This document shows positions 17,888 through 53,659 of a DNA stretch of 64,000 nt, piece by piece. The position numbers were made by a program, and so were the translations under genes. Source of the stretch: Eledone cirrhosa. Taxonomy: Eukaryota. The notes beneath the pieces were generated by a model. It was not told the DNA's origin. It ran no database searches and worked only from the letters and a program-made list of their open reading frames with translations. How positions within the stretch are numbered: the stretch's first letter is position 1; each line of letters starts with the position of its first letter. The stretch is taken from NCBI GenBank assembly GCA_964016885.1, contig OZ024740.1, positions 142,786,001 to 142,850,000 on the forward strand. Direction: 5' to 3'.

Positions 17888-20800
17888 TCATCATCATCAT
17901 CATCATCATCGTTTAACGTCCGTGTTCCACGCTTGCATGGGTTTGGACGGGGGTTTTCCCACTTGAGGCAAGAGTGATTGTCTTGCTCGCATAGGACTGT
18001 CTGGCAGGTTTTCTACAGTTGGATGCCCTTCCTAACACCAACCACATTTACAGTGTGGGTCTGGGAGGTTTTTACCGTGTTGCCTACACGGCCACATTAC
18101 AGCGTGGACTGTGTGTTTTTTTGTCGTGACACCTACACGATCTCATTTGTTTCGGCCTGGATGGTGTGGCACCAACATAACTTTACATAGAAGGGGGGGC
18201 GGTGTGGATGGGGTGGGGGGGTGGGGGTGTATTTTGTTAGAGATGCCTACTGACTGTAGTAGGTTTTACTTTGTATTTAGGTAAGGCGGGTCTTCTCTAT
18301 TACTGAGTACCGCCAAAGGTCTCGGTCCAGTGACATTGTCTTGGTGAGGTGTAAGTGTGTGAGGTCGGAGTTTATCAGCTCGTCCCAGGTTTTTCTGGGT
18401 CTGCCTATTCCGTGGCTACCGTCTATCTTTATTGCCCTGCACTTTGTTATACAGCTATCGTCCTTCATGCGCATCACGTGACCATACCAACGTAGCCTTC
18501 TCTCGAGTAAACAACATCTGATCCCTCTTATTTCTAATTTTTTCCTTAGTTCGTTTATGCTTTGTCGTTCACATATATTACTATTACACATCCAGCGGAG
18601 CATGCAAGCTTCGTTTCTCTCTAGTCTGCGTATATCCTCTGCACACAATGCCCAGGTCTCACTGCCATGCAACATTGCTGTTCGTATGCAGGCATCGTAC
18701 AACCTGCCTTTCATTTTTAGGGAGAACCCTTTAGCGGCTAATAGTGGTATAAGCTCTCTGAACTTTTTCCACCCAGTTCTGACTCTAGCTACTGTACTTT
18801 CAGAGCACCCTCCCCCACTGCTGATTTTGTCACCCAGGTAACGGAAGCTGTCCACTATTTCTATAGAACCCTCTGCGCAGTTGAAAGAGCTAGTATTTTG
18901 TGGGCACTTGCTGCTACTTATTGCCCCAGAACACCGGCCACATGTAAAATCTGTGTTCTTAGTTAGCTTACCTGTGATCCCACTACATCTTTTATGAACC
19001 CAAACTTTGCATTTGGGACACAAAATGGAATTTCCACCTACGCCTTTCCTACACTCTGCGCATGGCCACTTCCCGGGGGGGACCGCCGCCTTATTTTCTT
19101 TCTTACAAACTAGAACTTTAGTCTTAGCCAGGTTAATTTTAAGGCCTTTTGATTCTAGCCCGTGCTTCCATGTTTGGAATTTCTTCTCTAGCTCGGCCAT
19201 TGATTCAGCTATGAGCGTTAGATCATCTGCGCATAGGAGTTCCCATGGGCAGCCGGTCTTGAACTCCACTGTTATAGCCTGGAGGGCAATAATAAATAGT
19301 AGGGGGCTAAGAACAGAGCCCTGATGAACACCAACTTTTACACTAAACTCTTCACTATATTCGTTGTTAATTCTAACCTTGCTGACTGTTTCTTTATACA
19401 TGGCTTGTATAGCTCTCACAAGCCATTCATCGACACCTAGTTTTCTAAGAGCCCACCAGATAATGGAACGGGGGACTCTGTCGAAGGCCTTCTCCAAGTC
19501 GACGAAAGCTAAGTATAGGGGTTTACTTTTAGCTAGGTACTTCTCCTGTAGTTGTCGTACAATGAAAAGAGCGTCTGTGGTACTTTTTCCTGACACAAAC
19601 CCGAACTGCATTTCATCTAGATCAATTCGCTCTCTGATTAGTTGCGCTATTACTTTTTCCGTGACCTTCATGACCTGGTCGATTAATTTAATGCCTCTAT
19701 AGTTACTCCTATCTAGGGCGTCTCCTTTACCCTTATAACAGTTAACGATAATGCTGCTACGCCAGTCCTTCGGAACAACCCCATTCTGTATGACTTGGTT
19801 GACTATCCGGGTGACCATGGTGTGTCCCACCGTACCAGATGCCTTCAGCATTTCGGCAACTATTTCCGAAGGCCCAGCCGCCTTGCCTGTCTTCATATCT
19901 TTGATTGCCTTACTTATTATACTACCGTCGACTAACACTGCTGGTCCCTCTATTGGGTCGATGTGGGGGAGACTGTCTTTCTCCCATTTATTCTCCTCAT
20001 TGAGTAGCCTTTCATAGTGACACTTCCAAGCTACCTTCTTATCGGCGTCGGTGATGGCAAGTACGCCATCATCGTTAAGAACACACTTCTCCCCGACAAT
20101 ATCACTGTTTTCCTTGACACATTGCCTAGCAATCCTGAACACCTCACGTTTTTGGTCCTCACGTTGTAGAACATGCTTGAACTTTCTTTCCTCTGCTTCC
20201 CTTCTTGCGAAGTACACTTGTCTCCTAGCTTCCCTCCTGGCCACTTGATAGTCTTCTCTGCTTCCCCCATCCCGCCATACTTTCCAAGCCTGCTTTTTGG
20301 CCTTAATTGACCCCTCCACCTTACTGTTCCACCACCATGTTACTCTCCTCCTGCCTATAGGCCTGCTCCAGCCACAGACTTCGTCTGTCGCCGTCAGCAG
20401 GTTTGCTTTCAGGAATTCCCACTGTTCCTCTACCTTGTACGACTCTATTTGCTCTTCCTTACTGTCGAAAGCATCAAGTAATATGCTTTGGAATTTATTT
20501 TTGGCTGTGGGGTCCTTTAGCTTCTCTATTTTTCTCCTGAGGGTAGTCCTCTTCTGTTGCCTAGTACGTCTCGTCCTGACTATTAGGTCGCTAATTATCA
20601 GTCTATGTTGGGAGGTGCATTCTTCATGGGGGAGGGATTTAGTGTTTACAACAGTCACTTTGTCACGTCTTCTGGTAAGGATATAATCTACCTGGCTGGT
20701 ATGTTCCCCTGAACTGTAGGTGATCAAGTGATTGTTTCGTTTTTTGAAGTTAGTGTTGCAGATAGTTAGGTTATTTGCGTCACAGAATTCCAGGATTCTG

Positions 20801-21157
20801 GAGCCTTCCTCATTTCTAGTACCAAACCCATAGCCTCCATGGATTTCGTCGTAGCCGTCACAATGTTGTCCGTGACCGTTTAGGTCACCTGCAATAATTA
20901 TATAGTCACTGTCGGTTATTTGGGAGGTAGTGAGCATCAGTGTCTCATAGAATCTGTCTTTTATAGTGCTGGGCAGTCCGGATTGGGGTGCGTACGCGGA
21001 TATTACTGTCACCGTGGTTCTGTTGAGGACAAGTCTTATTTTAATTATTCTGTCGTTCACTCTATTTACATCTATTATCTTATCTGCCCACTTTTCTGCT
21101 ACCATGATTCCTACCCCACCCAGCCCATTGTCGTTTCCCACCCAGAAAAGCTTATAG
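17888..21157 (-). mobile_element. RTE-clade LINE (family A), 5'-truncated, young, inserted in a (TA)n tract, (GAT)n tail
   Basis: Uninterrupted APE-RT ORF, 3' UTR and (GAT)n tail; (TA)n on both sides. Confidence 0.93.
18277..21156 (-). CDS. RTE ORF: APE endonuclease + reverse transcriptase + PHD-like zinc finger; open for ~960 codons but lacking the extreme N-terminus
   Basis: SAYAPQ, AGDLNGH, QVDYIL, SQHR; [19 protein letters not shown] (YADD in family B); C-terminal RLRWYGHV, GRPRKTW. The first residues of the ORF-track translation come from the TA microsatellite. Confidence 0.9.
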   Translation of the reverse strand, partial: YKLFWVGNDNGLGGVGIMVAEKWADKIIDVNRVNDRIIKIRLVLNRTTVTVISAYAPQSGLPSTIKDRFYETLMLTTSQITDSDYIIIAGDLNGHGQHCDGYDEIHGGYGFGTRNEEGSRILEFCDANNLTICNTNFKKRNNHLITYSSGEHTSQVDYILTRRRDKVTVVNTKSLPHEECTSQHRLIISDLIVRTRRTRQQKRTTLRRKIEKLKDPTAKNKFQSILLDAFDSKEEQIESYKVEEQWEFLKANLLTATDEVCGWSRPIGRRRVTWWWNSKVEGSIKAKKQAWKVWRDGGSREDYQVARREARRQVYFARREAEERKFKHVLQREDQKREVFRIARQCVKENSDIVGEKCVLNDDGVLAITDADKKVAWKCHYERLLNEENKWEKDSLPHIDPIEGPAVLVDGSIISKAIKDMKTGKAAGPSEIVAEMLKASGTVGHTMVTRIVNQVIQNGVVPKDWRSSIIVNCYKGKGDALDRSNYRGIKLIDQVMKVTEKVIAQLIRERIDLDEMQFGFVSGKSTTDALFIVRQLQEKYLAKSKPLYLAFVDLEKAFDRVPRSIIWWALRKLGVDEWLVRAIQAMYKETVSKVRINNEYSEEFSVKVGVHQGSVLSPLLFIIALQAITVEFKTGCPWELLCADDLTLIAESMAELEKKFQTWKHGLESKGLKINLAKTKVLVCKKENKAAVPPGKWPCAECRKGVGGNSILCPKCKVWVHKRCSGITGKLTKNTDFTCGRCSGAISSSKCPQNTSSFNCAEGSIEIVDSFRYLGDKISSGGGCSESTVARVRTGWKKFRELIPLLAAKGFSLKMKGRLYDACIRTAMLHGSETWALCAEDIRRLERNEACMLRWMCNSNICERQSINELRKKLEIRGIRCCLLERRLRWYGHVMRMKDDSCITKCRAIKIDGSHGIGRPRKTWDELINSDLTHLHLTKTMSLDRDLWRYSVIEKTRLT

Positions 21158-21409
21158 CATATATATATATATATATTGTAAAAATGTATGTATAATACAA
21201 TCATATAGTTACTTTCTACTTGTGGATTGGCAGTATTGAAAGGGCATCAAACAACATACTTTGTGGTATACAGTTATGACCCTTTACGTTCTGAGTTCAA
21301 ATCCTGATGAGGTTAGCTTTGCTTTTCCTCCTTACAGGGTTAATGCAGTTTAATTGACTTACACTTACCCAAATATTGTTGGCCTGGTACCATAATTAGA
21401 AATTATATA

Positions 21410-24095: not shown

Positions 24096-24260
24096 TCAGT
24101 TGACTGTAGATGACTCTGCAGTGGGTCTGATCATTCGCTTTGGTCCTCGATTTGAAGGGCCTTTTGGTTTGGCAAATGCTTGCCGAGCTATGTTTTTCTT
24201 TGGATGAAGCTCATCCAGCAAGAAGTCTTCAGTTAATTCAGCACCCTCAGAAATTTCAAT
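24096..24260 (-). CDS. TWF1: Twinfilin coding exon 10 (terminal)
   Basis: tttaag|ATT GAA...AAC TGA; encodes [22 protein letters not shown]...[18 protein letters not shown]...VN*. Confidence 0.95.
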   Translation of the reverse strand: MEISEGAELTEDFLLDELHPKKNIARQAFAKPKGPSNRGPKRMIRPTAESSTVN

Positions 24261-27200
24261 CTTAAAAAAAATAAATAAAAATAAAAACATAAAGCAAAAA
24301 GAAATAAAAGTAGTTGTAGTGGTTGTTGTTATTGCTTAGCTCAAAGTCAACCCTAATCAAACAGACCAATTATAAAGGACAGGTGCCCTCTTTTTAGTGA
24401 GACAGCTACAAGAGAATTTCCAAGCTTAGTGTAAGCCACTAGTATAACTATCTAGCTTCCGTTGATCTGGAGAAGATTTTTGACAAAGTGCCACAATCTG
24501 TCATCTGGTGGTCCCTAAGGAAACTAGGTGTAGAAGAATGGCTTGTGAAAGCAGTGTAAGACATGTACAGAGGAGCTGTTAGTAAGATGAGAATAGGTAA
24601 TAAGTTAAGTGAGGAATCCAATGTGCAGGTAGGTGTCCATCAGGATTCAGTCCTCAGACCATTCCTGGTTATTACAGTTCTTCAGGCCATAACAGAAAAT
24701 TTAATATAAGCTGTCTGTGGAAGAGCTAGAGAAGAAATTCCAGTTTTGAAAAAGAGCTAAGAGTCAAAACGGCTTAGAATAAACTTGAGAAAAACAGAAG
24801 TTTCGGTCAGTAGGAAAGAAAAGAAAACTTTGATGCACATTGATAGTTGGTAGTAAAAGCATCGATAAAATATACTTTTTCCAATCCCAGGAAGGTTCCA
24901 TAGTAGTTGATAGCTTCTGCTACATAGGTGGAGAAGGTTTCACTGAGAGCATGGTAACTAGGATAAGAACAAGATGGAAAAAGTTCAGGGAGCTACTGCC
25001 TCTGTTGACAACAAAAGAAAGGCCAGCTGTATGATGCCTGTATGCAAAGTGTAATGTTGCATATTAGCCAGACACGAATATGCAAAGGCTAAAAAGAAAT
25101 TAAGCAAGGAATCCCAGTGAAAGGAAGCTGCAGAAGCAGGAGATGAAGGAAACGCTCATAGAGGAGATGACTAAAAACTGCAACAACTGGAGGGATGCTG
25201 TGTTAGAAAAGACCCGTCCAACCCATGCAAACAGGGAAAAACAGACATAAAACAATGATGATAATGATGATGATTCTAGCAGCAATGATTATCCTATCAT
25301 TTTGTACATATTACTATGGAATATTGTAAGGAGATAATTAAAAGTAGCACTAACATAACATGGTTCATCATAGGCGTGTATATCAAAGCATATGCAATAT
25401 ATTTATATATAATAAACTTACAAGTGTATTGCAATGAATTTTTTTTTAAAGCAGTGATCATGTATGTCACAGTTATCTCACTAGTGGTGAGAATGTCAAA
25501 TAGCTATTTGGGGATTATTATCTGACATTAGTAACATTTAGTCACTTGCTACTGAGCTATTTATGGCATATGAAACATCGGCTGCAGATGCTCATTTGCA
25601 TATAATGCAAACTTGACAGGTGAAAGGGAGATAATTAGAAGTGGCACTAACATCATAGGTGTGTATATGAAAGCAGGATATTGACTCTTAACATCCTGTA
25701 CTGATTTAGCAGGAAATATTTTAAGATGGGCTTGTTAATTTAAATGTTTATAGTATCTTTACCATTGTGAAAATTTGCAGTAAACTAAAATAAAGGCTTT
25801 AATATTTAATGTGATTCAGTCATAGTGCTGTTTTGTACATCTCAATGTGCTTTCATATGGTACAGGACGTTAAGAGTTAAATCACAATCCACAGACTATA
25901 TGTCTGAGAGGAGGTCAGCAATAATATCAACTTACCTTCTTAATAATTTCCATTTCCATCTGCTGCTCAACATAACTGAGAAAACAAGATTTGCAGCTGG
26001 AATAAAGCATTCTTTCTTTCACTGGGATACTATAACCAGGTGTAGAATATATGAACACTGCAAAGAAAATGACACAAATGACAATAAAATGTTTTACTTC
26101 CTCTATTTTACTTCTTTTTCATGGTGTAAAGTGACTGGCATTAAGAAAGGCTTCTAATTGTAGAAACCAAGCCAAAAATGGAATGTCTGAACAAGATATG
26201 GTCACCTGACAAGACAAGTCTCAAAACATGACAATCTATCTAACTGGAAAATATGGAAAATAGATGTTAAATGGTGATGATGAGGATGATGACATTATCA
26301 TCCTAAATTATAAGCACCATCTATCTACCAAATTCCACTCACTAAATATTGGTTAACCTGAGGCTAAAGTGATAATATAAAGTGGTAGTGCTAAAGTCAC
26401 ATTAAAATGCTCCCAATATATCTCTGGGAAGTGACTGAAGAATGTCCATATGTAGAAACCAAACCAAAAATGGAACATATGAACAAGATATGGTCGCCTG
26501 ACCAGTCTAGCCTCAGAACGTGACAACCTGTCTAACCCATGCAAGCATGAAAAATAAATAATTATGATATATCTTCATTCAGATACGAGACAAAAATTTA
26601 GTGGATATATAATGGACTTGAGATACTTATAAATACATGAATGTACCCATACTTATGTGTACACTATCTACGTGTATAAACACACACAGACACACACACT
26701 CAGTCACTCACACGCAAAAAAATAAACAACAAATGTATACAAACCAATGTTCTCCATATAATCTCCTTCATGGGTATGTTTGAATGTGAAGAAATGATAC
26801 CGGGCATGGTTATCAGGCACGTACTTTGGTAAGACATTCACATCAATAGTTGATTCGATTTCTAAGCAAATTCTCTCTTTTTGTATATCAATACTCTATA
26901 GATGAGAAATAATAACAATTGTCAAGCCACATGGAAATCATATTCACCATCATCACTGTATCTGCAGGAATACATGTAAATGCAGGAATTTGATTGCATT
27001 TGAATGTATGTGAGTCATTGCAGTATGTGGTAAGGAGATGCATATATGTGTGCAAATGCATATGTGTATGTGCATGTGTGACAAATATTGTGTATGCATG
27101 TATGATTGCATATCCTCATGTGACTGCATATGTAATTTGGCATATGTTTTCTTGAGCACACATGTCCAAATATTTGCAAATGTCTGTAAGTTTGAATGAG

Positions 27201-30200
27201 CGCATATATACGTATGTGTGAGAAGCAAGGGAGAAAACAGTAGTGTAAGGGAATGTAGGAAAGTAAGTGAATGGCAGAGAGAGTAAGAGGAAGTACTGAG
27301 TAAGAGAGGGTGAGAGGATAAAAGAGTGAATATAAAGAGTGAGTAAGAGAAAGTAAGTGACTGAGAGGTGATGATCTAGTTTGACAATAACAGTAAGTGA
27401 AATACTTACAATCTGGATATAAGTTATTAAACCATTCTGGAGGCGCTCCAAAGCTGCGATACAATCATTTGTGATGGGGAATGCTAGACCTTGCATCGTT
27501 TGGTTCTTAGTATCAATATTCACATCAGTATTCACCTAACAACAAAACAAAAGACATTTACACTATCTACTTCTCTGGTTCATGAGTTTGTGGGCATATA
27601 AGACAAAGATTGTGTATGCATGTATGATGGAATCTCCTCATGTGATTGCATATATAATTTGCTATGTGTTTCCATGAGCACAAATGTAATCACTCAAGAT
27701 GCAAGAAATAGCAGCTAAGTCTCTCAAAAATCCATCACTATCATCTTAAAAGAGAAAGACATATTTAGACAATATAGTCCTAAATATACAAAAGAGTGGA
27801 TTGTCACTACTAGGAAAAAAATCTTTGGTCATTTAAAGTTAAAGTTTGTCTTGAGCTTGGAGGTTCATCAAACCAGAGCTTATCTTGGATACATGAAGAC
27901 ACTTGTCTGCGATAAGGTCAAACCCTCCACCCCAGCTGCTGCTGATACTACTGGTACTTGATTTTTTTTTTTTTTCAGCTGAGTTGACTACAGCAAGATC
28001 TAGGGATTGAATCCATAATCTTCCAATCATGAACCCAATAGATTAACCACCACTAAGTTGGCGACCGCTGATTCAAAGCATTAGTTACAGAAAAACTAAC
28101 TTGTACACCAGATTAAATGCCTTACAGAATTCAATTTTGCTTTTGCTCCTCTGTATTTAGAGTTCAACTTCTTTAGGTGACTTAGTTGGAAAAGAGAGGG
28201 CACTACTTACAGTCATTTTCAAGGACAACTGAGATTGCTAGAAAGAAGAAAAGAAATTACCCTGAAACCCAAGAACTAACCCAAATGTTTGCAACAGAGT
28301 GGACTCAACTATTGACACACAAGAATCAGATTAAGTTTACTACCAAAAACAGGAATAGTCACTGTAACAATCTTCCACACAGGTTCCATCTACCAATTTT
28401 AACTCACAAGGTTTTCATTAATGCAAGGTTATAGTTGAAGTACAGTACACAGCTTAGAGGTTAGTTTTGAGTTCAGTCATAGGGTCATGGATTCGATTCT
28501 TGGACCAGACAGTACAGATCTTTGAACAAGCACTTCATTTAATGTTGCTCCAGTCCACTGGAGGGAAAAAATGAGTACCAACAGCAGTTGGGAGCTAACT
28601 CTGCATAAGGCATTGAAGATATGAACAACAAAGATGTCAAAAGAAACAGAAAAAAATAAACCTGTTCAAAGAAACAAAATAGTTCAAATACTTACTTCAG
28701 TTTTCTTAATAATTTCTAACTCTTCTTCAGCAAATGTTAATGGAGCAGGGGCCTTCTGGAATTCTATATGTTTGAGAAAACCATTCAGGGATATATCTTC
28801 CTATAATTATCAAAATACAGAGATGATAAATACTTGACCCTTGGTTAAATTTAGAAAACGAAATAGATGGAAGAGAAGAAGAGAAAAGAAATATGTTCAT
28901 GTATACAGAGAATAAAATGTAAACATCCCACCCCTTGCAGTTACTTAACACTTTCATTACCATATTTTTTAATGAAAAACACTGCCTATGATTTTGAAAT
29001 CATTTTGAAAATAAACAAGAATTTGAAGGGATTTAGTATGATGAAATAACTAAATTTCTTGATTTTAAGCTGGTGTTTGGAACATAACAAAGGTTCTTTC
29101 ATAAAATTATTATAAAAGTCTTTTTCAAATAAATATAAACACTTTAAAATAAACAATTTTCTATCATAGAATTAGGGTTGGTATCAGGCAGCTAGCTGTC
29201 AGGGGTTGGTGAGTGAAATAGTCTCTTGATACACTGAAGTGGGGGGTTAAAAATGTTAAAGTCTGTCACAAGTCCAGAAGCTCATCAGGCCGAGTTTATC
29301 CCAGTTTTATTGGTGTTAAGCAAAGAGTTGCCACTTCTATTCATATCTATAACTAAAACTGCATCAAAAGTTTGGCCTTCCAATTCAGAACCAGAAACTA
29401 CTTCAAAGTTCGCTAGTTCGCCACAAATGTTAAATAAGACCCACAATGGAGTGCTGCTCTCACATCTTTTGTGGTTTTGCTGCTGCTGTCCACACAGACA
29501 TCCTAAACTGTATTCCAAAGAAAGCCATCCAACTAATCAACATGGATTCACTCAACCAACACACTCCAAACTCTGGCTTATTAACATGCTGTTACAAGTG
29601 GTGTTACTAGGGTTGGTGTCACCCAGTGCAGTAATTGATAGCATCACCAATCCTTTCCATGGGTCTCTTTCTGTGCCAGATCATCAAAATTCTTAGTAAT
29701 ATTTTGTGAGTTACCAAACAAAAGGCCAAGAGGACTCTTAATTGTGTCAAGGACATGACAACCTCCCTAGTGTTTTGGGCCACAAATTGCACCTAATACA
29801 CTCTGTAAAGTGGTTGGTGAAAGGAAAAGCATCTAGCTGTAGAAACCAGCACAGGACAGCAGGCATTAAGCAATGATGATGATGATGATTTTAACTTACT
29901 TCAACTGTACCAAATAATTCTTCTTTTATGGAACCTCCACCAAACTCGGACTTCAGGGTTGACCTTGTAGCAGCAAACACCATTTTCTCACGCACCTTGA
30001 TCAGAAGGAATTCAGTGATACAAAAATGCAGAAAAGAATACAAATAAACTTCCAATAGTAAACATTTTTGAAATGTTTACTATTTCTCAATGATAAACAC
30101 TTATGAAATATTTGCCATCCTCAATAATAAACATTTCATAAATGTTTAATATTCCTCACATTTATGATGTTTACTATTCCTCAATGGTAAATAAAAAATG

Positions 30201-33200
30201 TTTGCTATTTTCAATGATAAACATTTACGAAATGTTTGCAATTTCTCAATAGTAAATATTTATGAAATGCTTACTAGTTCTCAATAATAAACATTTATGA
30301 AGTGTTTATTGGAAAATGATGAAATGCATTTGACTTGCAGGATAAAGAGAGGAAACTATACATATTAAGTCTATAATGAGTATACAGTGAACCCCCGACA
30401 TTCGCAGTCTTGGTTATTCACGGATTTTCCTTAGAACCTAACTAATAATTGTTTGTGGAAACCACTGCATATTCGCGGAATCATAAATATCTTCTGCGAT
30501 TTTTTATGGCTTTTTTCATGGCAATATATTTTTTTTAATGCTAAATTATTAATAACAATATACCGTATTTGCCGGCCTATTGGACGCCCCTTCGCATAAG
30601 ATGCTCCCTCTTTTTTTATAATATTTTACATTATATTTTTATGTTTATAGGCATTTTTATGGACCACGTCTAACATTCCCAGTTTTTCACTCTTCGTGAG
30701 TACTCTGGTAATGTAACCCTTGCGAATACCAGGGGACAACTGTATATGACTTGTCTTGTTCCCTCAACTCCATCTGGATTTGAGGGAGTACTATCACGAC
30801 ATACGGCATCTCTTCTAGATTTTAAACCTGACGGCACCCAGTGACAAGACATGAACCAATTATGTAAACATTGTAAATACCCCCTCACACACACAAACTA
30901 ACATGCAAGGATATATATCCTGATTAACGTTTCCGTTTCTGGCCATATTGCAGTGTTTTGGTCAACCCTTACCTATGGTCATGAATCTTGGATTATGACC
31001 GAAAGAATACAACATGAATACAAACAGCCAAAATGGGGTTCCTTCAAAGGGTCCTTGGAGTAACATTACTCTCAGAGGTTGGAGAGTTGCTCCACACGGA
31101 GCTGCTATTTCTCCAAATTGAGAGATCATAGCTCGGATACTACAGACATGTGGTCAGCATGTCTCAGGAAAGAATAGTTGGACAGATTTTACAGATAAAA
31201 CCAACAAGCAGGAGACCCAGTGGTAGACCCTGAGCAAGATGGTTGAATAACATCCATGAACTTGGCTGGTCTCACTTGGAGATCAAGCCAAATCAATTGG
31301 AAACGGTTGCTTCTGACAGGACCTGCTGGAAGGCCTGCTTCAGGACTCTACCTCCACGACCCAACCAAGAATAAGTGGGTGAAGAAGACCATGTTTCTAA
31401 TAAAATATACTGTATTTTAATAAATTAATGAACAATTTGGAGGGATTTACTCAAATTATTACTTATTTTATTAATATAAATAGGTAGACACAAAGCAGGC
31501 TTTGTTTACAAACAGCTAGCGAATTTGAAAATTAGGTAGTAACATGTGCTTATACCATATTTGACTAAATAGGATTAGTCTGTTAGTTAGGATTTAAAAA
31601 ACCCTCTGAATGGAAAAAAGGATGAGTATTGACATACATGGGACATGAACCCACATTTTTGGTTTACCAGACCAATGTGTTACCATTATTGTAGTTGGTG
31701 AAAGGAAAATCATCTAGCTGTTGAAACCAGCAAAGGAAAGTAGGCATCAAGCAATGATGATGATTTTAACTTACTTGGTAAGGCAAACCAAAGATGTGGG
31801 TTCGTGTCCCATGTGCGTCAATACTCATCCTTTTTTCCATTTAGAGAGTTTTTTTAAATCCCAACTAACAGACTAATTTTATTTAGTCAAGTACAGTGTA
31901 AGCACATGCTACTACCTAATTTTATTTTATTAAGACGGTATTTGTAACATAACTTAAAGGTTCTTACATTAACTTATGCTGAAAGGCTTTAATTTAAATT
32001 AAAATCACTTAAAATAGGTAGTTTTGTTTCATAGAATCAGATGCAGTTTTGGGTAGGTTAGTATGAAAAGAGTTAAATGTCTAATGTTTAAAATACCCAG
32101 GAATAAAACACCTGATGATGATCAAAGATCAAACTAACCATAGTACCATCATTGTCACCATCATTTTTACGTCCATATGTACCAGTATGGATTGGATGCA
32201 ACTTTATAAGACAGTGTTTTCTGACAAAATACCCTTCCTGGTGCCAACCCTTTCAGTCACCTCTAACAGCACACAGGGATATGATACAGCATTCCTAATC
32301 TAAAAACCAGGATACATACAGTATAAATATTTGCATAATATAAATATATACTCTCAAGATGAGGTTAACAGTCTGAGAAATTACCATCTGGATATATATT
32401 ACTCTGGTTGATAAGAATATTAAGTAGCTTATGACATTTCTTTCAGAGCATACCATATTCTTGAAAGAGATAGTATCAAACTTCATATACTTTATCAACA
32501 AAAATAATATTACTGATAACAACGATGAGAATAACAATGGTTTGTAATTAAAGCACGTGGTTAGCAATTCGGTGGGGAAGAGAGTATGTCAATTATATCG
32601 ACCCTGGAAGGAAAAAAGACAAAGTATCCTCAGCAGGATTTGAACTCAAAATATAATGCTCTAATGATTCTGCTAATCCACTAGCCCTTTTAATAATGAG
32701 AGTAATAATCCTAATATTGGCATAAACCCACAATTTGGTGGGGAAGGGGAATAGACAATTGATTCAACTTTAATATATGACTGCTATTCATTTTAGCAAC
32801 ACATTCTTCTTTCTTTTTTAGTTCATTTTACTCCCTATAGATCATTGGATAACAAGAGATCCTTATTCCCTATGGTCACAAGCTCTGTCATGAGCCTGCT
32901 CTCAGACCAGGTTTATGTCTGCCAGGTCTTCTGCCACAGAGATCAGCCAGGTCTTAAAACACCATGCCACTTTCAGGATTCCAAGCATTCATTATCAACA
33001 CTGGAGATATGGAATACTAAAGTTGACTTTAGAGATCTGAACTCTAAAGTCAACTTTAGAAGACAAAAATAAATACTGTAAACTATTTAATGTGACAAAA
33101 ATAATACTTACCGGTGAAAAGTCTGGAGACCAACAGATAAAGGCCCATTCATAGCCAAGGTTATTTTTTGAATCCAAGCGATATAGTATGTAACAAGGTT

Positions 33201-36200
33201 TCTTATCCTCCAAATATCTAAGTACCATTTTATCATAATGTGAAAGAGCTGTTAAAGAATTATATAAATCTGTGGCATCTAATTGTCTCATGAGACAATG
33301 GATCTGCTCCTGGAAAGTCTTGCTTTATACACACATACACACACAAACACACAGCCATTACTTGTAAGCAAGGATGACTTGATAGCATGTACCATGCTTT
33401 TGTGAATTGTGTTTGGCCTATGATCAATGTACTTGACTCTGCTTGCTTCAATCTACCTTGGCAATCATCATATATATAGCACAGCATTAGCTACTCTTTA
33501 CTTCATGTACAAGTCAGTATTTACATACAGTTGGTGGTATTGATCTTTTTATAGGTGACACAGCTTTCATTTTTAGTGATTTATACATTCACAAGTCTCT
33601 TACTACATTGCTAGCTATAGCACAGACAGATGTATATACACACACACAGATATGCTCACACACATAGATATATTTACACATACAGACATACAGACACACA
33701 CACACACACACACACACACAACAGACAGGCAGGCACATTGAGATACACATCATTATCATCATCATCATTTTATGTTAGTTTTCTATGTTGGCATGGGTTG
33801 GATAGGTCAATATAGTCCGAGACTAGACTTGTCCGAGCACCACATTTAGCTCTTGTGTTCCATATTTGGTATGGTTTCTATGGCCCTTCCTAATACCAAA
33901 CCCCTTAAAGGGTGTAATGGATGCATTTTATCATAGCACTACCATTTTACAGAATGCCATGAAAGTATTTTATTGTAGCACCAGTATTACCACATTATAG
34001 AGTGTACTGGGTATATTTTATCATGGCACAATCACAACTACATTAGAGAGTGTACTAGGTGCATATATACTTCTCACACCAAATGTTTAACTTAAGAAAT
34101 ACCATATGAGGTCTGTCAAAAAAGTATCCAATCTTAAGCTGGGAAAAAATAATTACATAGTTGGTAGGGTTTGATTGTTAATCTCCTTCAAAGTTTTATC
34201 CCTTGTGCCTCCACACACATAGCCCAACAATCCTTCCACTGTTTAAAACATGTCTTGAATGCTTCATCAAGAATGACTGTCAGCTCCACCATTGCAGTCT
34301 GCATGAAGCTCAAATGAGCCATGTCTGGAGAGTGGATCAGCTGCAACAAATGAGAGAGGGCATTGTCATGATGCAGCTGCCTGTTTTGGAGTCTAAGGAT
34401 CTGGTCTATAAACTGAACTGCCTTATGAAGACATTGGACAACTTCCTGATAGTACTTTGTAACTGTTTTTTCCTTTTGGTGCATATTCAGGATACACAAT
34501 ACTTCAGTAGTAAAAATAAAAAAAAAACAGTCAGCATCACTTTGATTTTGCTCCACAGCTGACATTGCTTTTTGGGGACGTTGGTGATGTTGAGTGTTTC
34601 CACTGTGATAAATGAGCTTTGGTTTCTTGGTTTTACCTGTACACTCATGTCTCATCTCCAGTTATCACAGTATTCAGGATCCTTGTTAGCAGTATCAGGG
34701 GAAATGAAAATGTGCAGCACCTCACATGCTGGATGCCTGACAGCAACTGATATGTCTATCAAATTCACCAAAAATGATGCATGCACATGAATGTATCCAG
34801 CTCCATCCTACACACTTTTATCTCTCTAACATCATTACTTATACAAAACAAAGTGAGATACTTTTTTGACAGACTGCATATATGTGTGTATATATATAAA
34901 AGGATATCATTTTTCCAGTCACTAGTTGGCATTAAATGTTTCTCTAAAACTATCACTTCTGAAAAAGAAAGAAGATAATCATGAAAAGAAACAATAATTA
35001 AGGTATTTTTAAAAATAATAACAACATTGTTGAAATAATGATTTTTTAAAATAATATTCTTAATCAATGATTTCTTAAAATAATGTTTTTAAAATATTGT
35101 TTTGTAATAAAAAAAAATTTAGAATGAATTTTTTATCTTCTGCTTCCCTCCTTGCAAAGTATACTTCCTGGCCTCTATATAGGGTACTCTGCTTCCCTGG
35201 TTCTTTCATGACCTGGTCCATCAACTTGATGTCTCTATAGTTTCCTCTATCTAGTGCATCGCCTTTACCTTAGCAGTTGACAATGATGCTGCTGTGCTAA
35301 TCATTCGGTATGACACCATTTAGTATTACTTGGTTTACAATACAAGTGGTTAAGGTGTGACCCACTGATGCTTACAGCATCTCGGAAACTATCCCCGATG
35401 GACCGGCTGCTTTTCCGGTCACAATTTTTCCTAACACACTGCCTCACAATCCTGAACACCTTGTGTTTCTGGTCTTCATTCTGCAAAACATGCTTGAATT
35501 TTTTATCTTGATTCTCTCCTTGGAATGTATAGTTCCTGGCCTCTATGTAGTGTACCCTGATTCCCCTGTTCTTCCTTTTTTCCATGTCTGTCTTTTGTCC
35601 TTAATTGTCTCATCTACCTTATTGTTCCACAACCAAGTCACTCTCTTTCTCTCTGTAACCCTGCAGCATCACCTTCAGTAAATTATTTTTCAGGAACTCC
35701 CAATGCTCTTCTACACTGAATGTCACTATTTGTTCTTCCTTAGTGTCGTAGGGCATCAAGCAAAATATCTTTAAATTTGTTACTGGCTGAGGGCTCTTTC
35801 AACTTCTGTCTCCAAGTTCATATAGCTCTGATAATGAGGTCACTAACAACTAGATTATGTTGGGCGGTGCATTCCTCGCCAGGGAAGGATTTCGTGTTTA
35901 CCACTGTCACTTATCTCACCCTCTGGTAAGGATAAAATCTGATTAGCATGTTCACCTGATTTATAGGTGATCAGGTGGTTGTCAGGTTTTTCAAAGTTTG
36001 TGTTACGTATTGATAGGTCATGGCGTCATAGAATTCTAGGAGCCTGAAACCTTCTTCATTTCTTGTGCCAAACATGTGGCCACCATGGACTCTGTAGAAG
36101 CCGTCACAGTGTTTTCCCACATGTCCAATAAAGTCTCCTGCATTGATTATGAAGTCAGTGTCATTCGTTAGGGTAGTGGCATGCATTAGGAATTCATAAA

Positions 36201-36798: not shown

Positions 36799-39700
36799 AA
36801 TGAAAAATGGCGAGCTGTGTTATTGCAAATAGGATATATATATAATAAATGAAGAATTAGAAATAGAAGCCAGGAATATCCATCATCAGTGGTCTACTAG
36901 CCATCATAGGTATTTCTTCGCATTACAGACCATATACCTCAAGCTAGGGCGATACAATAACTAAAATAAGTTATTGCGATAAAAAAAAGTTGGGTGGAGA
37001 AAGAGAGACAGGTAAACAAAAATGGTGAGGCAACGTAAAGAGAGAAAAAAATGAGAAAATCAAGTCAATAATTCATTTTGAACATAAGAACTTGTGAATA
37101 TTGACGAGAAGGCAAAGACACATCTTGGCAGTGCAGATATGAGCGAGGAAAGAATCTCGTATGGTGTGGGACGATGGAGGAAGTGAGAGAGAGGGTGAGT
37201 AGCAGAGAGTGAGTGAGTGAAAGTGTGTGGAAGAGGCTAGCCGAGAGAGAGTGGCTAGCAGAGGGAGTGAGTGAAAGTAAGAGGGAGAAGGAGAGAGAAG
37301 GGGGAGAGAGAAAGAGGATAGCAGTAAAGGAAGAGAAAAAGACAGGATATATACATATATATCCTCATCAGCACCGTTTAGCATCCATTTTTCCATACTA
37401 GCATAAGTTAAACGAGTTGTCCTGCTGTGAGACAAGCCAGATCAGATGACCATGTCTTGCTCATACAGAACTATTTCTGACTTGATTTCTATGGTTGGAT
37501 TCCCTTCCTAACACCAAACACATTTACAGTGTCAACTGGATGTTTTTTGTCATGACACCTACACTACCACTTTACAGTGTCCTACACAACCACAGTGTGG
37601 ACTGTAAAGTGGTTGTGTAGATCTCACGACAAAAAGCGCCCAGTCCACACTGTAAACTGGTTGTGTAGGTGTCATGACAAAAAGCTTCCAGTCCACACTG
37701 TAAATGTGGTTGGTGTTAGGAAGGGCATCAAGAACTCCCAATGCTCTTCTATACTGAATGTCACTATTTGTTCTTCCTTACTGCTGTAGGGCATCGAGCA
37801 AAATATCTCTAAATTTGTTACTGGCTGAAGGCTCTTTCAACTTCCATATCCTCCTCCTCCAGGTTGCTCTCTGTCTCCAAGTTCATATAGCTCTGATAAC
37901 GAGGTCACTAACAACTAGATTATGTTGGGAGGTGCATTGCTTGCCAGGGAAGGATTTTGTGTTTACCACTGTCACTCTATCTCACCCTCTGGTAAGGATA
38001 AAATCTAATTAGCATGTTCACCTGATTTATAGGTGATCAGGTAGTTGTCAGGTTTTTCCAAGTTTGTGTTACATATTGATAGGTCATTGGCGTCACAGAA
38101 TTCAAGGCGCTAGAAACCTTCTTCATTTCTTGTGCCAAACATGTGGCCACCATAGACTCTGTAGAAGCCGTCACAGTGTTTTCCCACATGTCCAATAAAG
38201 TCTCCTGCATTGATTATGAAGTCAGTGTCATTCGTTAGGGTAGCAGAATGCATCAGGAATTCATAAAACCTATCTTTGAGTTTGTCTGTCAACCCAGATC
38301 AGACAACAGAACAGCCTGCTCACGAAACTTATGAGCATTCCACAAGCACATACACCCCTAGCCCCTTAACATATTTCTCAGAGAGCTTCAGCATGACACA
38401 GTGTGTGCGACAAGGCTGGCATTTTAAATTGCAGATAAATCCTTTGCCAGTTGAGTGGACTGGAACAATGTAAAATAAAGTGTCTTACTCAAGGACACAA
38501 GGAATCAAACTCACGACCATACACTGAGAAGATGAGCTCCACCAGGTTTTCAAAAAGATCCCCTAGAAACACTATATGTTAATATGGCACCCCTATGACT
38601 CTGTCAGAAAATGGGAGGAGGAAGAGAAACAGTAATTCCAATATCTTAACATTTCAAAAACAGCAACACTGAAGAACTGAAGGAGGTAACTTACCATCTT
38701 CTATGCTTAACTTCATAAAACGCAGGCCTTCACTTTTAGCATTACCAAAGAAGACTTTTAATTCCGGAGAAGCTATGGACAAAATGAAACAGATATTGGA
38801 AAACAGTTCAGAACAAATAAAATAGAATGAAAAAATACTACCAATTTAAAGATTTTATTTCTCATTTAATGGAATCATTATCCCGCCGAGGTTAACTTTG
38901 CCTTTCATCCTTACAGGGTCAATAAAATAATGTACCAGTGATGCACTGGGTAATAGTTGGCCTTGTGCCAAAAGTAGAAACAATTATTATTGTTATTGTT
39001 GTTATTATTATTATTTGTGACTTGGATGGCCAACCTTAACCCTTTAGCATTTAAACAGGCCGGAATTCTCCCACATCATGTTATTTATTTTGACAACAAT
39101 ACCTTAACATCAGTATGAGTGGCCAATTACAGTCAGTTTGAACAGAAAGAGGTGGGAGAATTCTGGCCAGATATGGTTGGTTTAAATGCCAAAGGATTGA
39201 GGTTAGCTATCCAGGTCACAAATAATAATAATTGTTTCTACTTTTGGCACAAGGCCAGCAATTACCCAGTGCATGACTGGTACTTTATTTTATTGACCCC
39301 GCAAGGATGAAAGGCAAAATTAACCTCGGCGGGATTTGAACAATAATATAGGCACGAGGCCAGCAATTTTGGGGGAGGGGAACGTCGATTAAATTGACCC
39401 CAGTGCATGACTGGTACTTTATTTTATCGACCCCGTAAGGATGAAAGGCAAAGTTAACCTCGGCGGGATTTGAACTCAGATCATAAAGGGCCGTAACTCT
39501 ATGCTGCAAAGCATGGCGTCCGACCCTCTACCAATAATGCCAATCGACCGCCCTAATAGTAATAACAACAATAAAAATAACAAGGATTTAATATTCCTAT
39601 CTAATAGAAACTTTGTTTTAAATCTGCTTTTATTCATAACTAATTGCTTGCTGCCAAAAAAAAACAAGAATTTTACACAACTAATCAACTACTCCGCATA

Positions 39701-52675: not shown

Positions 52676-53659
52676 AGAGAGGGGGGTGGCGGGCATTAGT
52701 GTCTCAAAGTTTTATTTTTCTACTTTTTGTTTCCTTTTACAAATTGTTTATATAGAATTTACTAAAAATTCGAACCCACCTGAGGCCAAAATTCTTATTA
52801 ATTATTAAAACTACATAACTGACTAGGATTGTCGGTAAGCACAGACTATATAGAAATAGCAGCCACATATCTCTGATATCACACCCTGACGTCTTAAATA
52901 AACAAAGATGCAATGGATAATGTATTTCCTGGTATACAACTATGTATAAGGGATTGTCATATGCTAGGACGCATTTGGATCAGAGCTGACTTACGACTAA
53001 ATAGCAGCAAAATGTAATAAATAAACTGTTAAATTGCCACATGAGGAGAAATATCTTGCAGAAAGTATAATTTTTGGTCAACATATTTTACTATATACAC
53101 ACATATGTATATATATATATATATTTTTTTTAAATTGGTCAGGAATTTTTAAAAATTGAAACCCAAAATTATAGATGTTATCTATAAATACACCCGGTTG
53201 GCCTAGTGACACATCCGTAGAAAAAGCTTACCTTAAACAGAATATATGGATAAAAGAAGATAGTATCACATGCAATGTTTGTTAATGAAAGGAAGTAAAC
53301 TCGCCCTGTGAAATAGTGACACAATTAGTTGTTGTTGGTATGGTTGTTTAGCCACAGATCAGATCAAGTAGACCTTCTTGGTGGGCGTAAACAACCTGGA
53401 ATAAATATATAACACATCATGTTAATATTTTTTTGTAAATTAAGTATAACAATTAAGAACATATAAATTAAAAGGCTTCGTAAATAATTTTCTACGGTAA
53501 AATTGGAAAGTATATACGTAGCTTATTTAAAAAGGAAAGAATGAAAAAAACAAGTGTCCCGGTACACGGAGAGAGACAGAAAAAATCAAACTGATCAATA
53601 TCATTATCACAATGTAAATAGAGAAAATATTAACCTGTTATTCCAGTTTGATGAGACAT
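24096..53659 (-). CDS. TWF1: Twinfilin (two ADF-H domains + capping-protein-binding tail), 10 coding exons, 348 aa
   Basis: Spliced product [75 protein letters not shown]...[28 protein letters not shown]...[16 protein letters not shown]...[11 protein letters not shown]...AFAKPKGP. Exon lengths 25,78,51,128,96,105,126,151,122,165 = 1047 nt with consistent phases. The symbol denotes the twinfilin family; TWF1 vs TWF2 orthology is not resolved. Confidence 0.97.
24440..25275 (+). mobile_element. Degraded, internally deleted RTE copy in twinfilin intron 9
   Basis: [36 protein letters not shown] remnants; (GAT)n tail. Confidence 0.8.
25936..26057 (-). CDS. TWF1: Twinfilin coding exon 9
   Basis: tgcag|TG TTC...AAG|gtaag; encodes [41 protein letters not shown]. 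Confidence 0.95.
26745..26895 (-). CDS. TWF1: Twinfilin coding exon 8
   Basis: atag|AGT...ATT G|gtttgt; encodes [11 protein letters not shown]...[21 protein letters not shown]. Confidence 0.95.
27410..27535 (-). CDS. TWF1: Twinfilin coding exon 7
   Basis: ttag|GTG...ATT|gtaag; encodes [42 protein letters not shown]. Confidence 0.95.
28696..28800 (-). CDS. TWF1: Twinfilin coding exon 6
   Basis: atag|GAA...GAA|gtaag; encodes [35 protein letters not shown]. Confidence 0.95.
29900..29995 (-). CDS. TWF1: Twinfilin coding exon 5
   Basis: tcaag|GTG...GAA|gtaag; encodes [32 protein letters not shown]. Confidence 0.95.
30053..30311. repeat. Minisatellite of ~8 self-complementary ~35-bp units
   Basis: Unit approximately CAATAGTAAACATTT-ATG-AAATGTTTACTATTYCT. 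Confidence 0.85.
30385..30742. mobile_element. pogo/Tigger-like MITE (same family as 17529-17869)
   Basis: TA-CAGTGAACCCCCGACATTCGC ... GCGAATACCAGGGGACAACTG-TA; shares internal sequence with the first copy. Confidence 0.75.
30900..31390 (+). mobile_element. Degraded RTE-clade (Expander/Rex3-like) LINE 3' fragment
   Basis: [31 protein letters not shown] remnants; short GAA tail. Confidence 0.65.
31528..31923. repeat. ~148-bp inverted repeat (31528-31675 / 31775-31923) with a ~100-bp spacer
   Basis: Arms align as reverse complements with scattered mismatches, e.g. AATGGAAAAAAGGATGAGTATTGAC / GTCAATACTCATCCTTTTTTCCATT. Confidence 0.9.
33112..33239 (-). CDS. TWF1: Twinfilin coding exon 4 (starts after the U12 AC acceptor)
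   Basis: tttcac|AT TAT GAT...TCA CCG|gtaag; encodes [42 protein letters not shown]. Confidence 0.93.
33240..34907 (-). other. U12-type (minor spliceosome) AT-AC intron of twinfilin, 1668 nt
   Basis: 5' ATATCCTTTT; branch-point motif TTCTTTAAC at 33259-33251; 3' terminal AC at 33241-33240. Removal restores WKND-YDKM in frame. Confidence 0.9.
34107..34878 (-). mobile_element. Mariner (Tc1/mariner) relic inside the U12 intron
   Basis: TIRs GTCTGTCAAAAAAGTATC / GATACTTTTTTGACAGAC with TA flanks. Transposase remnants YYQEV and LHHDNA. Confidence 0.8.
34908..34958 (-). CDS. TWF1: Twinfilin coding exon 3 (ends at the U12 AT donor)
   Basis: ttttcag|AA GTG...AAT G|atatcctttt; encodes [17 protein letters not shown]. 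Confidence 0.9.
35150..36560 (-). mobile_element. Degraded RTE copy (5' endonuclease region) in twinfilin intron 2
   Basis: [32 protein letters not shown] remnants with deletions. Confidence 0.85.
37732..38300 (-). mobile_element. Duplicate of the RTE endonuclease fragment at 35693-36232
   Basis: Near-identical sequence ([36 protein letters not shown]). Confidence 0.85.
38695..38772 (-). CDS. TWF1: Twinfilin coding exon 2
   Basis: catag|CT...GAT G|gtaag; encodes [26 protein letters not shown]. Confidence 0.93.
40090..42375 (+). mobile_element. Degraded RTE copy with an internal fold-back and a nested insertion
   Basis: [32 protein letters not shown] remnants; 3' UTR repeats; (GAT)n tail. 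Confidence 0.85.
41579..41834 (+). mobile_element. 3' fragment of a different RTE-type LINE (C2H2 finger) with a 12-bp TSD
   Basis: Encodes [38 protein letters not shown] at 41567-41578 and 41835-41846. Confidence 0.8.
43890..44069 (-). mobile_element. SINE copy with a 21-bp TSD
   Basis: CTTAGATATTGTTAATATAAT at 43869-43889 and 44070-44090. Confidence 0.85.
44155..44480 (-). mobile_element. Second tRNA-derived SINE family
   Basis: Degenerate tRNA-like head at the right end; body ACAACAGAACAGCCTGCTC...GAGTGGACT.GAGCAATG shared with 38300-38530, 4840-4940 and 28450-28600. Confidence 0.65.
45007..45056. repeat. (GT)n microsatellite
   Basis: Read directly from the sequence. Confidence 0.95.
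53635..53659 (-). CDS. TWF1: Twinfilin coding exon 1 (MSHQTGIT)
   Basis: AAAA-ATG TCT CAT CAA ACT GGA ATA ACA G|gttaat; conserved twinfilin N-terminus, phase 1. Confidence 0.93.

Follow-up and report, generated by a model that had tools for sequence, protein, structure and literature searches.

An exactly excised AT-AC intron in an octopod twinfilin gene, likely a minor-spliceosome intron and likely an old animal intron lost by vertebrates

Introduction

Twinfilin is an actin regulator with two ADF-H domains (Pfam PF00241; PDB 1m4j, 7ccc and 2vac). The window, by which we mean the whole stretch of 64,000 nucleotides of Eledone cirrhosa DNA analysed here, holds a twinfilin gene in which a single intron begins with AT and ends with AC. 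An initial annotation, made from the letters alone, had called this intron U12-type and had proposed that it is either a rare lineage-specific gain or an ancestral intron lost in vertebrates. The locus raises three questions: whether the intron is spliced at its AT-AC ends, which spliceosome would remove it, and whether it is a gain or a survivor. Our answer, to which we give a probability of about 75%, is that the intron is excised exactly, that it is likely removed by the minor spliceosome, and that it likely belongs to the old introns of animals and has been lost from vertebrates.

Both large surveys of minor introns include Octopus species, as far as their available portions show. The portions of the papers and supplements that our search covered (including PMC3291851) make no mention of a twinfilin minor intron; one may be listed in the introns.info, MIDB, Dryad or FigShare tables, which lie outside that search.

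Results

An ordinary twinfilin gene with one AT-AC intron

The gene lies on the minus strand of the window and has ten exons:

53635..53659, minus strand: coding exon 1, 25 nt (gene model)
38695..38772, minus strand: exon 2, 78 nt (gene model and a loose end of transcript contig X4 record 26)
34908..34958, minus strand: exon 3, 51 nt, residues 35-52, ending AAT G (gene model and X4 contig)
33112..33239, minus strand: exon 4, 128 nt, residues 52-94, part of the N-terminal ADF-H domain, starting AT TAT GAT (gene model and X4 contig)
29900..29995, minus strand: exon 5, 96 nt (gene model and a loose end of X4 record 26)
28696..28800, minus strand: exon 6, 105 nt (gene model)
27410..27535, minus strand: exon 7, 126 nt (gene model)
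26745..26895, minus strand: exon 8, 151 nt (gene model)
25936..26057, minus strand: exon 9, 122 nt (gene model)
24096..24260, minus strand: exon 10, 165 nt including the stop codon (gene model)

Together the exons form a frame of 1,047 nt whose sole stop is terminal, and the 348-aa product is 86% identical to the Octopus sinensis twinfilin(-1), grouping with Octopus and Argonauta in our tree (support 99). Exon 4 has a single match across the 3.0-Gb genome. By these measures the gene is an ordinary, single-copy twinfilin. The eight introns other than intron 3 are GT-AG; introns 2 and 4-9 were checked at both ends, and intron 1 has a GT donor and an AG before exon 2.

Mobile DNA and repeats lie around these exons. 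At 18280-21246 on the minus strand a LINE has an open frame of 989 aa that covers endonuclease, reverse transcriptase and PHD domains, and decayed relatives of it are found in intron 2. In intron 4, about 50 nt past the exon 4 donor, a perfect 18-bp inverted repeat with a 7-nt loop lies at 33017-33059.

Intron 3 and its signals comprise the following features:

33240..34907, minus strand: AT-AC intron 3, 1,668 nt, phase 1, in the Asp52 codon (G|AT); exact junction in X4 record 26
34898..34907, minus strand: U12-type 5' splice site ATATCCTTTT, matching RTATCCTT(T)
33251..33259, minus strand: U12-type branch motif TTCTTTAAC, eight of nine letters of TTCCTTAAC
33240..33241, minus strand: 3' splice site AC (sequence and X4 contig)
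34104..34881, unstranded: decayed DNA transposon within intron 3, with 25-nt inverted ends (92%) and no Pfam hit

The transposon, which we take from its motifs to be mariner-like, has one edge about 26 nt from the donor.

Signals of the U12 class stand at both ends of intron 3

Intron 3 opens with ATATCCTTTTA and closes with ATTCTTTAACAGCTCTTTCAC (also given as TTCTTTAACAGCTCTTTCAC). Paired by eye, donor positions +4 to +10 are complementary to the U11 5' end of this genome, with one G-U pair, and to the AAGGAGA region of U6atac; the lone mismatch of TTCTTTAAC to TTCCTTAAC, also read by eye, forms a G-U pair with U12 GUAAGGAA. The branch A is likely the one at 33252, 12 nt ahead of the 3' end, and the optimum given in the accessible text of Turunen et al. 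(2013; PMC3584512) is 11-13 nt. The 5' site, the AT-AC ends and the presence of minor snRNA genes in the genome (below) are all shared with the U12-type AT-AC introns described there. Minor introns avoid phase 0, according to the available part of PMC10639083, and intron 3, in phase 1, is like them in this respect.

The donor motif by itself is not rare: RTATCCTTT was seen once in the window, against 1.95 occurrences expected in shuffles. It is the position of the motifs that counts. Per base of the gene span, the frequencies are 1.7e-4 for ATATCCYT and 6.8e-4 for the branch motif followed by AC, and the chance of finding both motifs on two intron edges that are fixed by homology is ~1e-7.

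A transcript contig joins exons 3 and 4 at the AT-AC ends

Record 26 of run X4 is an mRNA-type contig of 2,336 nt with a depth of 167 and no mismatches. Its letters 282-333 correspond to 34959-34908 and its letters 334-463 to 33239-33110; the sequence beyond these stretches, at the loose ends, is that of exons 2 and 5. The contig joins 34908 directly to 33239, and the splice is therefore exact at the AT-AC ends. A join placed as much as 2 nt further along would fit the contig too, but of these placements only the one given here has AT-AC ends with the full donor. The RNA support consists of contigs of one run, of unrecorded kind, from one study, and contigs drop rare forms; four runs were found, and none of them is registered as RNA. 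Within these bounds, intron 3 is real and is excised exactly in a transcript contig, and the junction between 34908 and 33239 that the initial annotation had predicted is the one used, with no recourse to GT-AG sites. Contigs lying within the intron have depths of 3-5 vs 167 for the spliced contig; contig depth is flat, and these were left out as a measure of retention.

The AG 9 nt upstream of the intron end is unused in this contig. That AG had been put forward as the site at which GT-AG gene predictors would err, replacing Asp with ALSH; such a change needs an AT-AG junction, and we rejected it as a form of GT-AG mis-annotation.

The genome also holds genes for the minor snRNAs. Matches over the Rfam cut-offs were found for U6atac (15 matches, best 93.6 bits), U11 (two, 96.4 bits), U12 (one, 128.2 bits) and U4atac (one, 81.3 bits). 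Most of the 15 U6atac matches are likely retrocopies, U11, U12 and U4atac having one or two each. Taken together, the motifs, the exactness of the junction and the presence of all four snRNA genes make it likely that intron 3 is removed by the minor spliceosome, the U12 class being judged here by hand comparison of motifs. The U12-type call of the initial annotation is upheld on the same three grounds.

Removal by the major (U2) spliceosome has to be weighed against this, since AT-AC ends alone do not define the class, as the accessible text of PMC3584512 makes clear. U12-type introns have no distinct polypyrimidine tract; the last 15 nt of intron 3 are fairly pyrimidine-rich (0.67), with a share at positions -15 to -4 (0.67) that resembles those of the AT-AC and the GT-AG orthologues alike, and the branch motif carries one mismatch. 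Nevertheless, the 5' site is a full ATATCCTTT, the branch motif stands within the optimal 11-13 nt, and both signals are kept in eight distinct orthologous introns whose interiors range from 342 to 1,430 nt (below). We consider removal by the U2 machinery very improbable.

Vertebrates and several other groups read through the site

A profile of residues 35-94 found 111 short open reading frames, 92 of which are unbroken through the Asp52 site. In 85 of the 111 the best match is a vertebrate one, TWF1- or TWF2-like, and the frame runs unbroken through the site to an intron-like tail after P94; a few of these 85 are partial gene models rather than read-throughs. These frames indirectly support a single vertebrate exon across the site, in agreement with the 179-nt exon that the initial annotation had given for vertebrates. 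The vertebrate E35-P94 exon would thus correspond to the 51 + 128 nt of the octopod gene, split by intron 3 with the protein unchanged. In the part of the human minor-intron table available to us (PMC10810330 supplement), ACTR10 and ARPC5 are present while TWF1 and TWF2 are absent.

Four tapeworm-like frames also read through the site, as do arthropod-like frames (taxa assigned by similarity alone) and five frames from a group without a named member (P0240, P0247, P0322, P0326 and P0354). No named deuterostome with an intron at Asp52 was found among the sequences examined.

The same intron in metagenome DNA

An exon 4 profile, run against metagenome contigs, picked out 31 loci. At 14 of these (eight distinct sequences) an AT-AC intron with U12 signals interrupts the same Asp codon in the same phase. 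These introns start with ATATCCTTT or ATATCTTTT, end with CCTTRAC and AC, have the branch A 10-13 nt from the intron end and are 342-1,430 nt long. Five further loci show the branch motif and AC, and nothing more of the intron ends. We left out of the intron tally L010, L011, L015, L018 and L021, which are cDNA-like and intronless over the matched stretch, and L037, which starts inside exon 4. With the profile A4, viral contigs yielded no loci (32 pattern matches, no relatives), and neither did prokaryote genomes (six matches, two relatives).

In the tree, a quick version in which 40 of 78 inner branches are left open, the AT-AC loci (eight, one per distinct sequence) fall together with L031 in a clade of 20 rows that has a support of 99 and contains no named mollusc. 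Similarity to Lamellibrachia suggests that this clade is likely annelid. Protein clusters could be named to species for five of 30 proteins (Centruroides, Acropora, Helgoeca, Rhincodon and Meganyctiphanes). One locus, L017, has other introns and none at the Asp52 site; it is choanoflagellate-like (support 86 with Helgoeca).

A GT-AG intron occupies the same place at four of the 31 loci (three distinct sequences). Two of the four, L012 (intron at 497-1768) and L013, lie within the heterodont bivalves (support 100 for L013), and their donor GTATCT is a remnant of the U12 donor. L014 and L016, with the donors GTAAGA and GTAATC, belong to a clade without a named member; this clade, L011/L014/L016, stands outside the mollusc and annelid groups and weakly near Acropora (support 87). 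All three distinct GT-AG versions have AG at donor positions -2/-1, where the phase-1 AT-AC versions have TG or CG. In the available portion of PMC11347168, AG at these positions is described for minor-like and major introns, and the twinfilin versions fit the conversion route given there, in a sample that is small and made up of related sequences.

Locus L031 differs from the others in position. Its intron (L031:415-1240) is AT-AC, carries ATATCCTTG and TTCTTAAC, and lies 2 nt downstream in phase 0, leaving an exon 3 of 53 nt; the exons match the full-length protein P0064. The branch distance given by the TTCTTAAC motif is 10, and we set aside a distance of 4, which comes from a later TTTAAT. 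We also rejected the unshifted placement, which would have AC-TC ends and just 8 nt after the branch A, and likewise a placement with CA-CA ends. With good confidence we regard this intron as having slid by 2 nt, from phase 1 to phase 0, while staying U12-type, the slide apparently running through a tandem ACAC acceptor. Intron sliding is described as very rare in the accessible part of PMC10639083; twinfilin would offer one lineage with a 2-nt slide.

Exon 4 itself varies among the metagenome loci. In a heterodont bivalve twinfilin gene, the 3' half of exon 4 recurs together with its donor in several tandem repeats of ~82 nt (L012, L013:3044-3513 and L037), and in-frame insertions of an 8-codon tandem repeat lie inside exon 4 at L038:2423-2629 and L039:702-860, with copy numbers that differ between the two loci.

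Public gene models are scarred at Asp52

Where a gene model runs on into an intron that ends in AC, Asp52 becomes His; where it runs on into the donor, the result is D-I-L. As a control, residue 52 in 139 intact full-length proteins is D in 129, E in nine, Y in one and H in none. Four public twinfilin models (P0012, P0035, P0094 and P0325, from Pinctada imbricata, Mactra antiquata, Lymnaea stagnalis and Acropora digitifera) contain an error at the Asp52 codon that could be corrected. The Lymnaea scar reads D-I-L-F...I-H-Y-D and the Mactra scar D-D-I-L-C; the Pinctada scar reads F-L-N-A-N-L-H-Y-D, in which F-L-N fits the branch motif in frame. Mis-annotation had been foreseen by the initial annotation, and it did occur in these four models; its form is D-I-L...H-Y-D, not ALSH.

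The Acropora model (XP_015778183.1) ends its scar ...L-P-H-Y-D and is the sole non-bilaterian evidence for the intron. It is gappy, is mis-built elsewhere, and has residues without a clear branch motif; its scar indicates what would be an exon edge at the Asp52 codon and says nothing of the intron class.

Scars of the AG or AC type also occur in frames without a species name (P0015, P0241-P0243, P0245, P0246, P0248, P0250, P0314, P0315, P0320, P0321, P0340, P0347, P0361 and P0366). These show the intron to be widespread, and they were left out of the dating.

Taken with the likely annelid loci, the mollusc scars indicate that the intron was already in place in the ancestor that molluscs share with the likely annelid clade. 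An intron of that age excludes a gain within cephalopods. A recent gain in octopods or cephalopods would have vertebrate absence in its favour and nothing else, and it faces an intron of the same position and phase at 14 AT-AC and four GT-AG metagenome loci, together with scars in snail and bivalve gene models; we give it almost no credence. The lineage-specific gain that had been offered as one of two histories thus fails at the level of cephalopods or molluscs.

Discussion

In minor splicing, U11/U12 binds the 5' splice site and the branch motif together, and U6atac then replaces U11. For intron 3, U11/U12 would recognise the donor and the branch motif jointly, U6atac would take over from U11, and the AC 12 nt past the branch A would serve as the 3' site. 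With intron 3 retained, the reading frame reaches a stop 46 codons in, and degradation would be the likely fate of such a transcript.

As to history, the intron would date back at least to the mollusc-annelid ancestor and likely as far as the cnidarian-bilaterian one. Cephalopods, snails, some bivalves and the likely annelid clade would have kept its AT-AC form; a heterodont bivalve and one other clade would have converted it to GT-AG, and in one lineage it would have moved by 2 nt. Precise deletion would have taken place before the vertebrate TWF1/TWF2 split, and would also account for the tapeworm and arthropod-like sequences examined. On this account the intron must have been lost several times independently, because vertebrates, tapeworm and arthropod-like frames and the choanoflagellate-like L017 are all without the intron.

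The principal competing history is a de novo gain of a U12 intron on the protostome or spiralian stem, in which case vertebrates, arthropods and non-bilaterians never had one. Every placeable example at the DNA level comes from a mollusc or the likely annelid clade, the vertebrate, arthropod-like and choanoflagellate-like sequences lack the intron, and one gain requires fewer events than several losses. A stem gain keeps some probability because of those required losses, because no deuterostome case was found, and because U12 introns are stable in vertebrates: in the available text of Lin et al. (2010; PMC2831892), 156 of 180 U12 clusters are kept in all eight vertebrate species. Against it, the Acropora model breaks exactly at the Asp52 codon with an H-Y-D scar, and the GT-AG clade L011/L014/L016 lies outside the mollusc and annelid groups and weakly near Acropora. 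Gain of U12 introns is moreover very rare, with one clear case in the accessible portions of PMC2831892 and PMC3584512, the former reporting far more losses. We think a stem gain unlikely, and we favour an old intron because U12 losses far exceed gains and because of the Acropora scar. An ancestral intron lost in vertebrates, the second history proposed at the outset, is accordingly the better supported, its putative presence in an outgroup to Bilateria being read from the Acropora digitifera scar.

If the intron is indeed old, its fate follows processes described elsewhere. Loss and conversion of minor introns are treated, in the parts available, by Lin et al. (2010; PMC2831892), Larue and Roy (2023; PMC10639083) and Olthof et al. 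(2024; PMC11347168), and PMC10639083 also describes rare sliding; the twinfilin site is alike in combining precise deletion with GT-AG conversion. It differs in one respect, the losses in the accessible text of Lin et al. (2010) lying mainly in invertebrates and the twinfilin loss lying on the vertebrate side. Human twinfilin orthologues are without a minor intron, and surveys anchored on human genes would miss the octopod one.

Most of the surprise disappears if the intron is ancestral and was lost, for there are many documented cases in which minor introns were lost or converted. The finding would matter more if non-bilaterians and invertebrate deuterostomes prove to lack the intron, de novo U12 gains being almost unknown. 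A gain on the protostome or spiralian stem, if true, would be one of very few datable minor-intron gains, with retention, GT-AG conversion, precise loss and a slide all followed at one site. On the reading that we favour, an old intron lost by vertebrates, there is nothing unusual about this minor intron except its host, a gene that is not known to carry one. It explains wrong gene models in several invertebrates, exemplifies a minor intron that is invisible to human-anchored surveys, and offers students of intron evolution a single site for comparing retention with conversion, loss and an apparent 2-nt slide.
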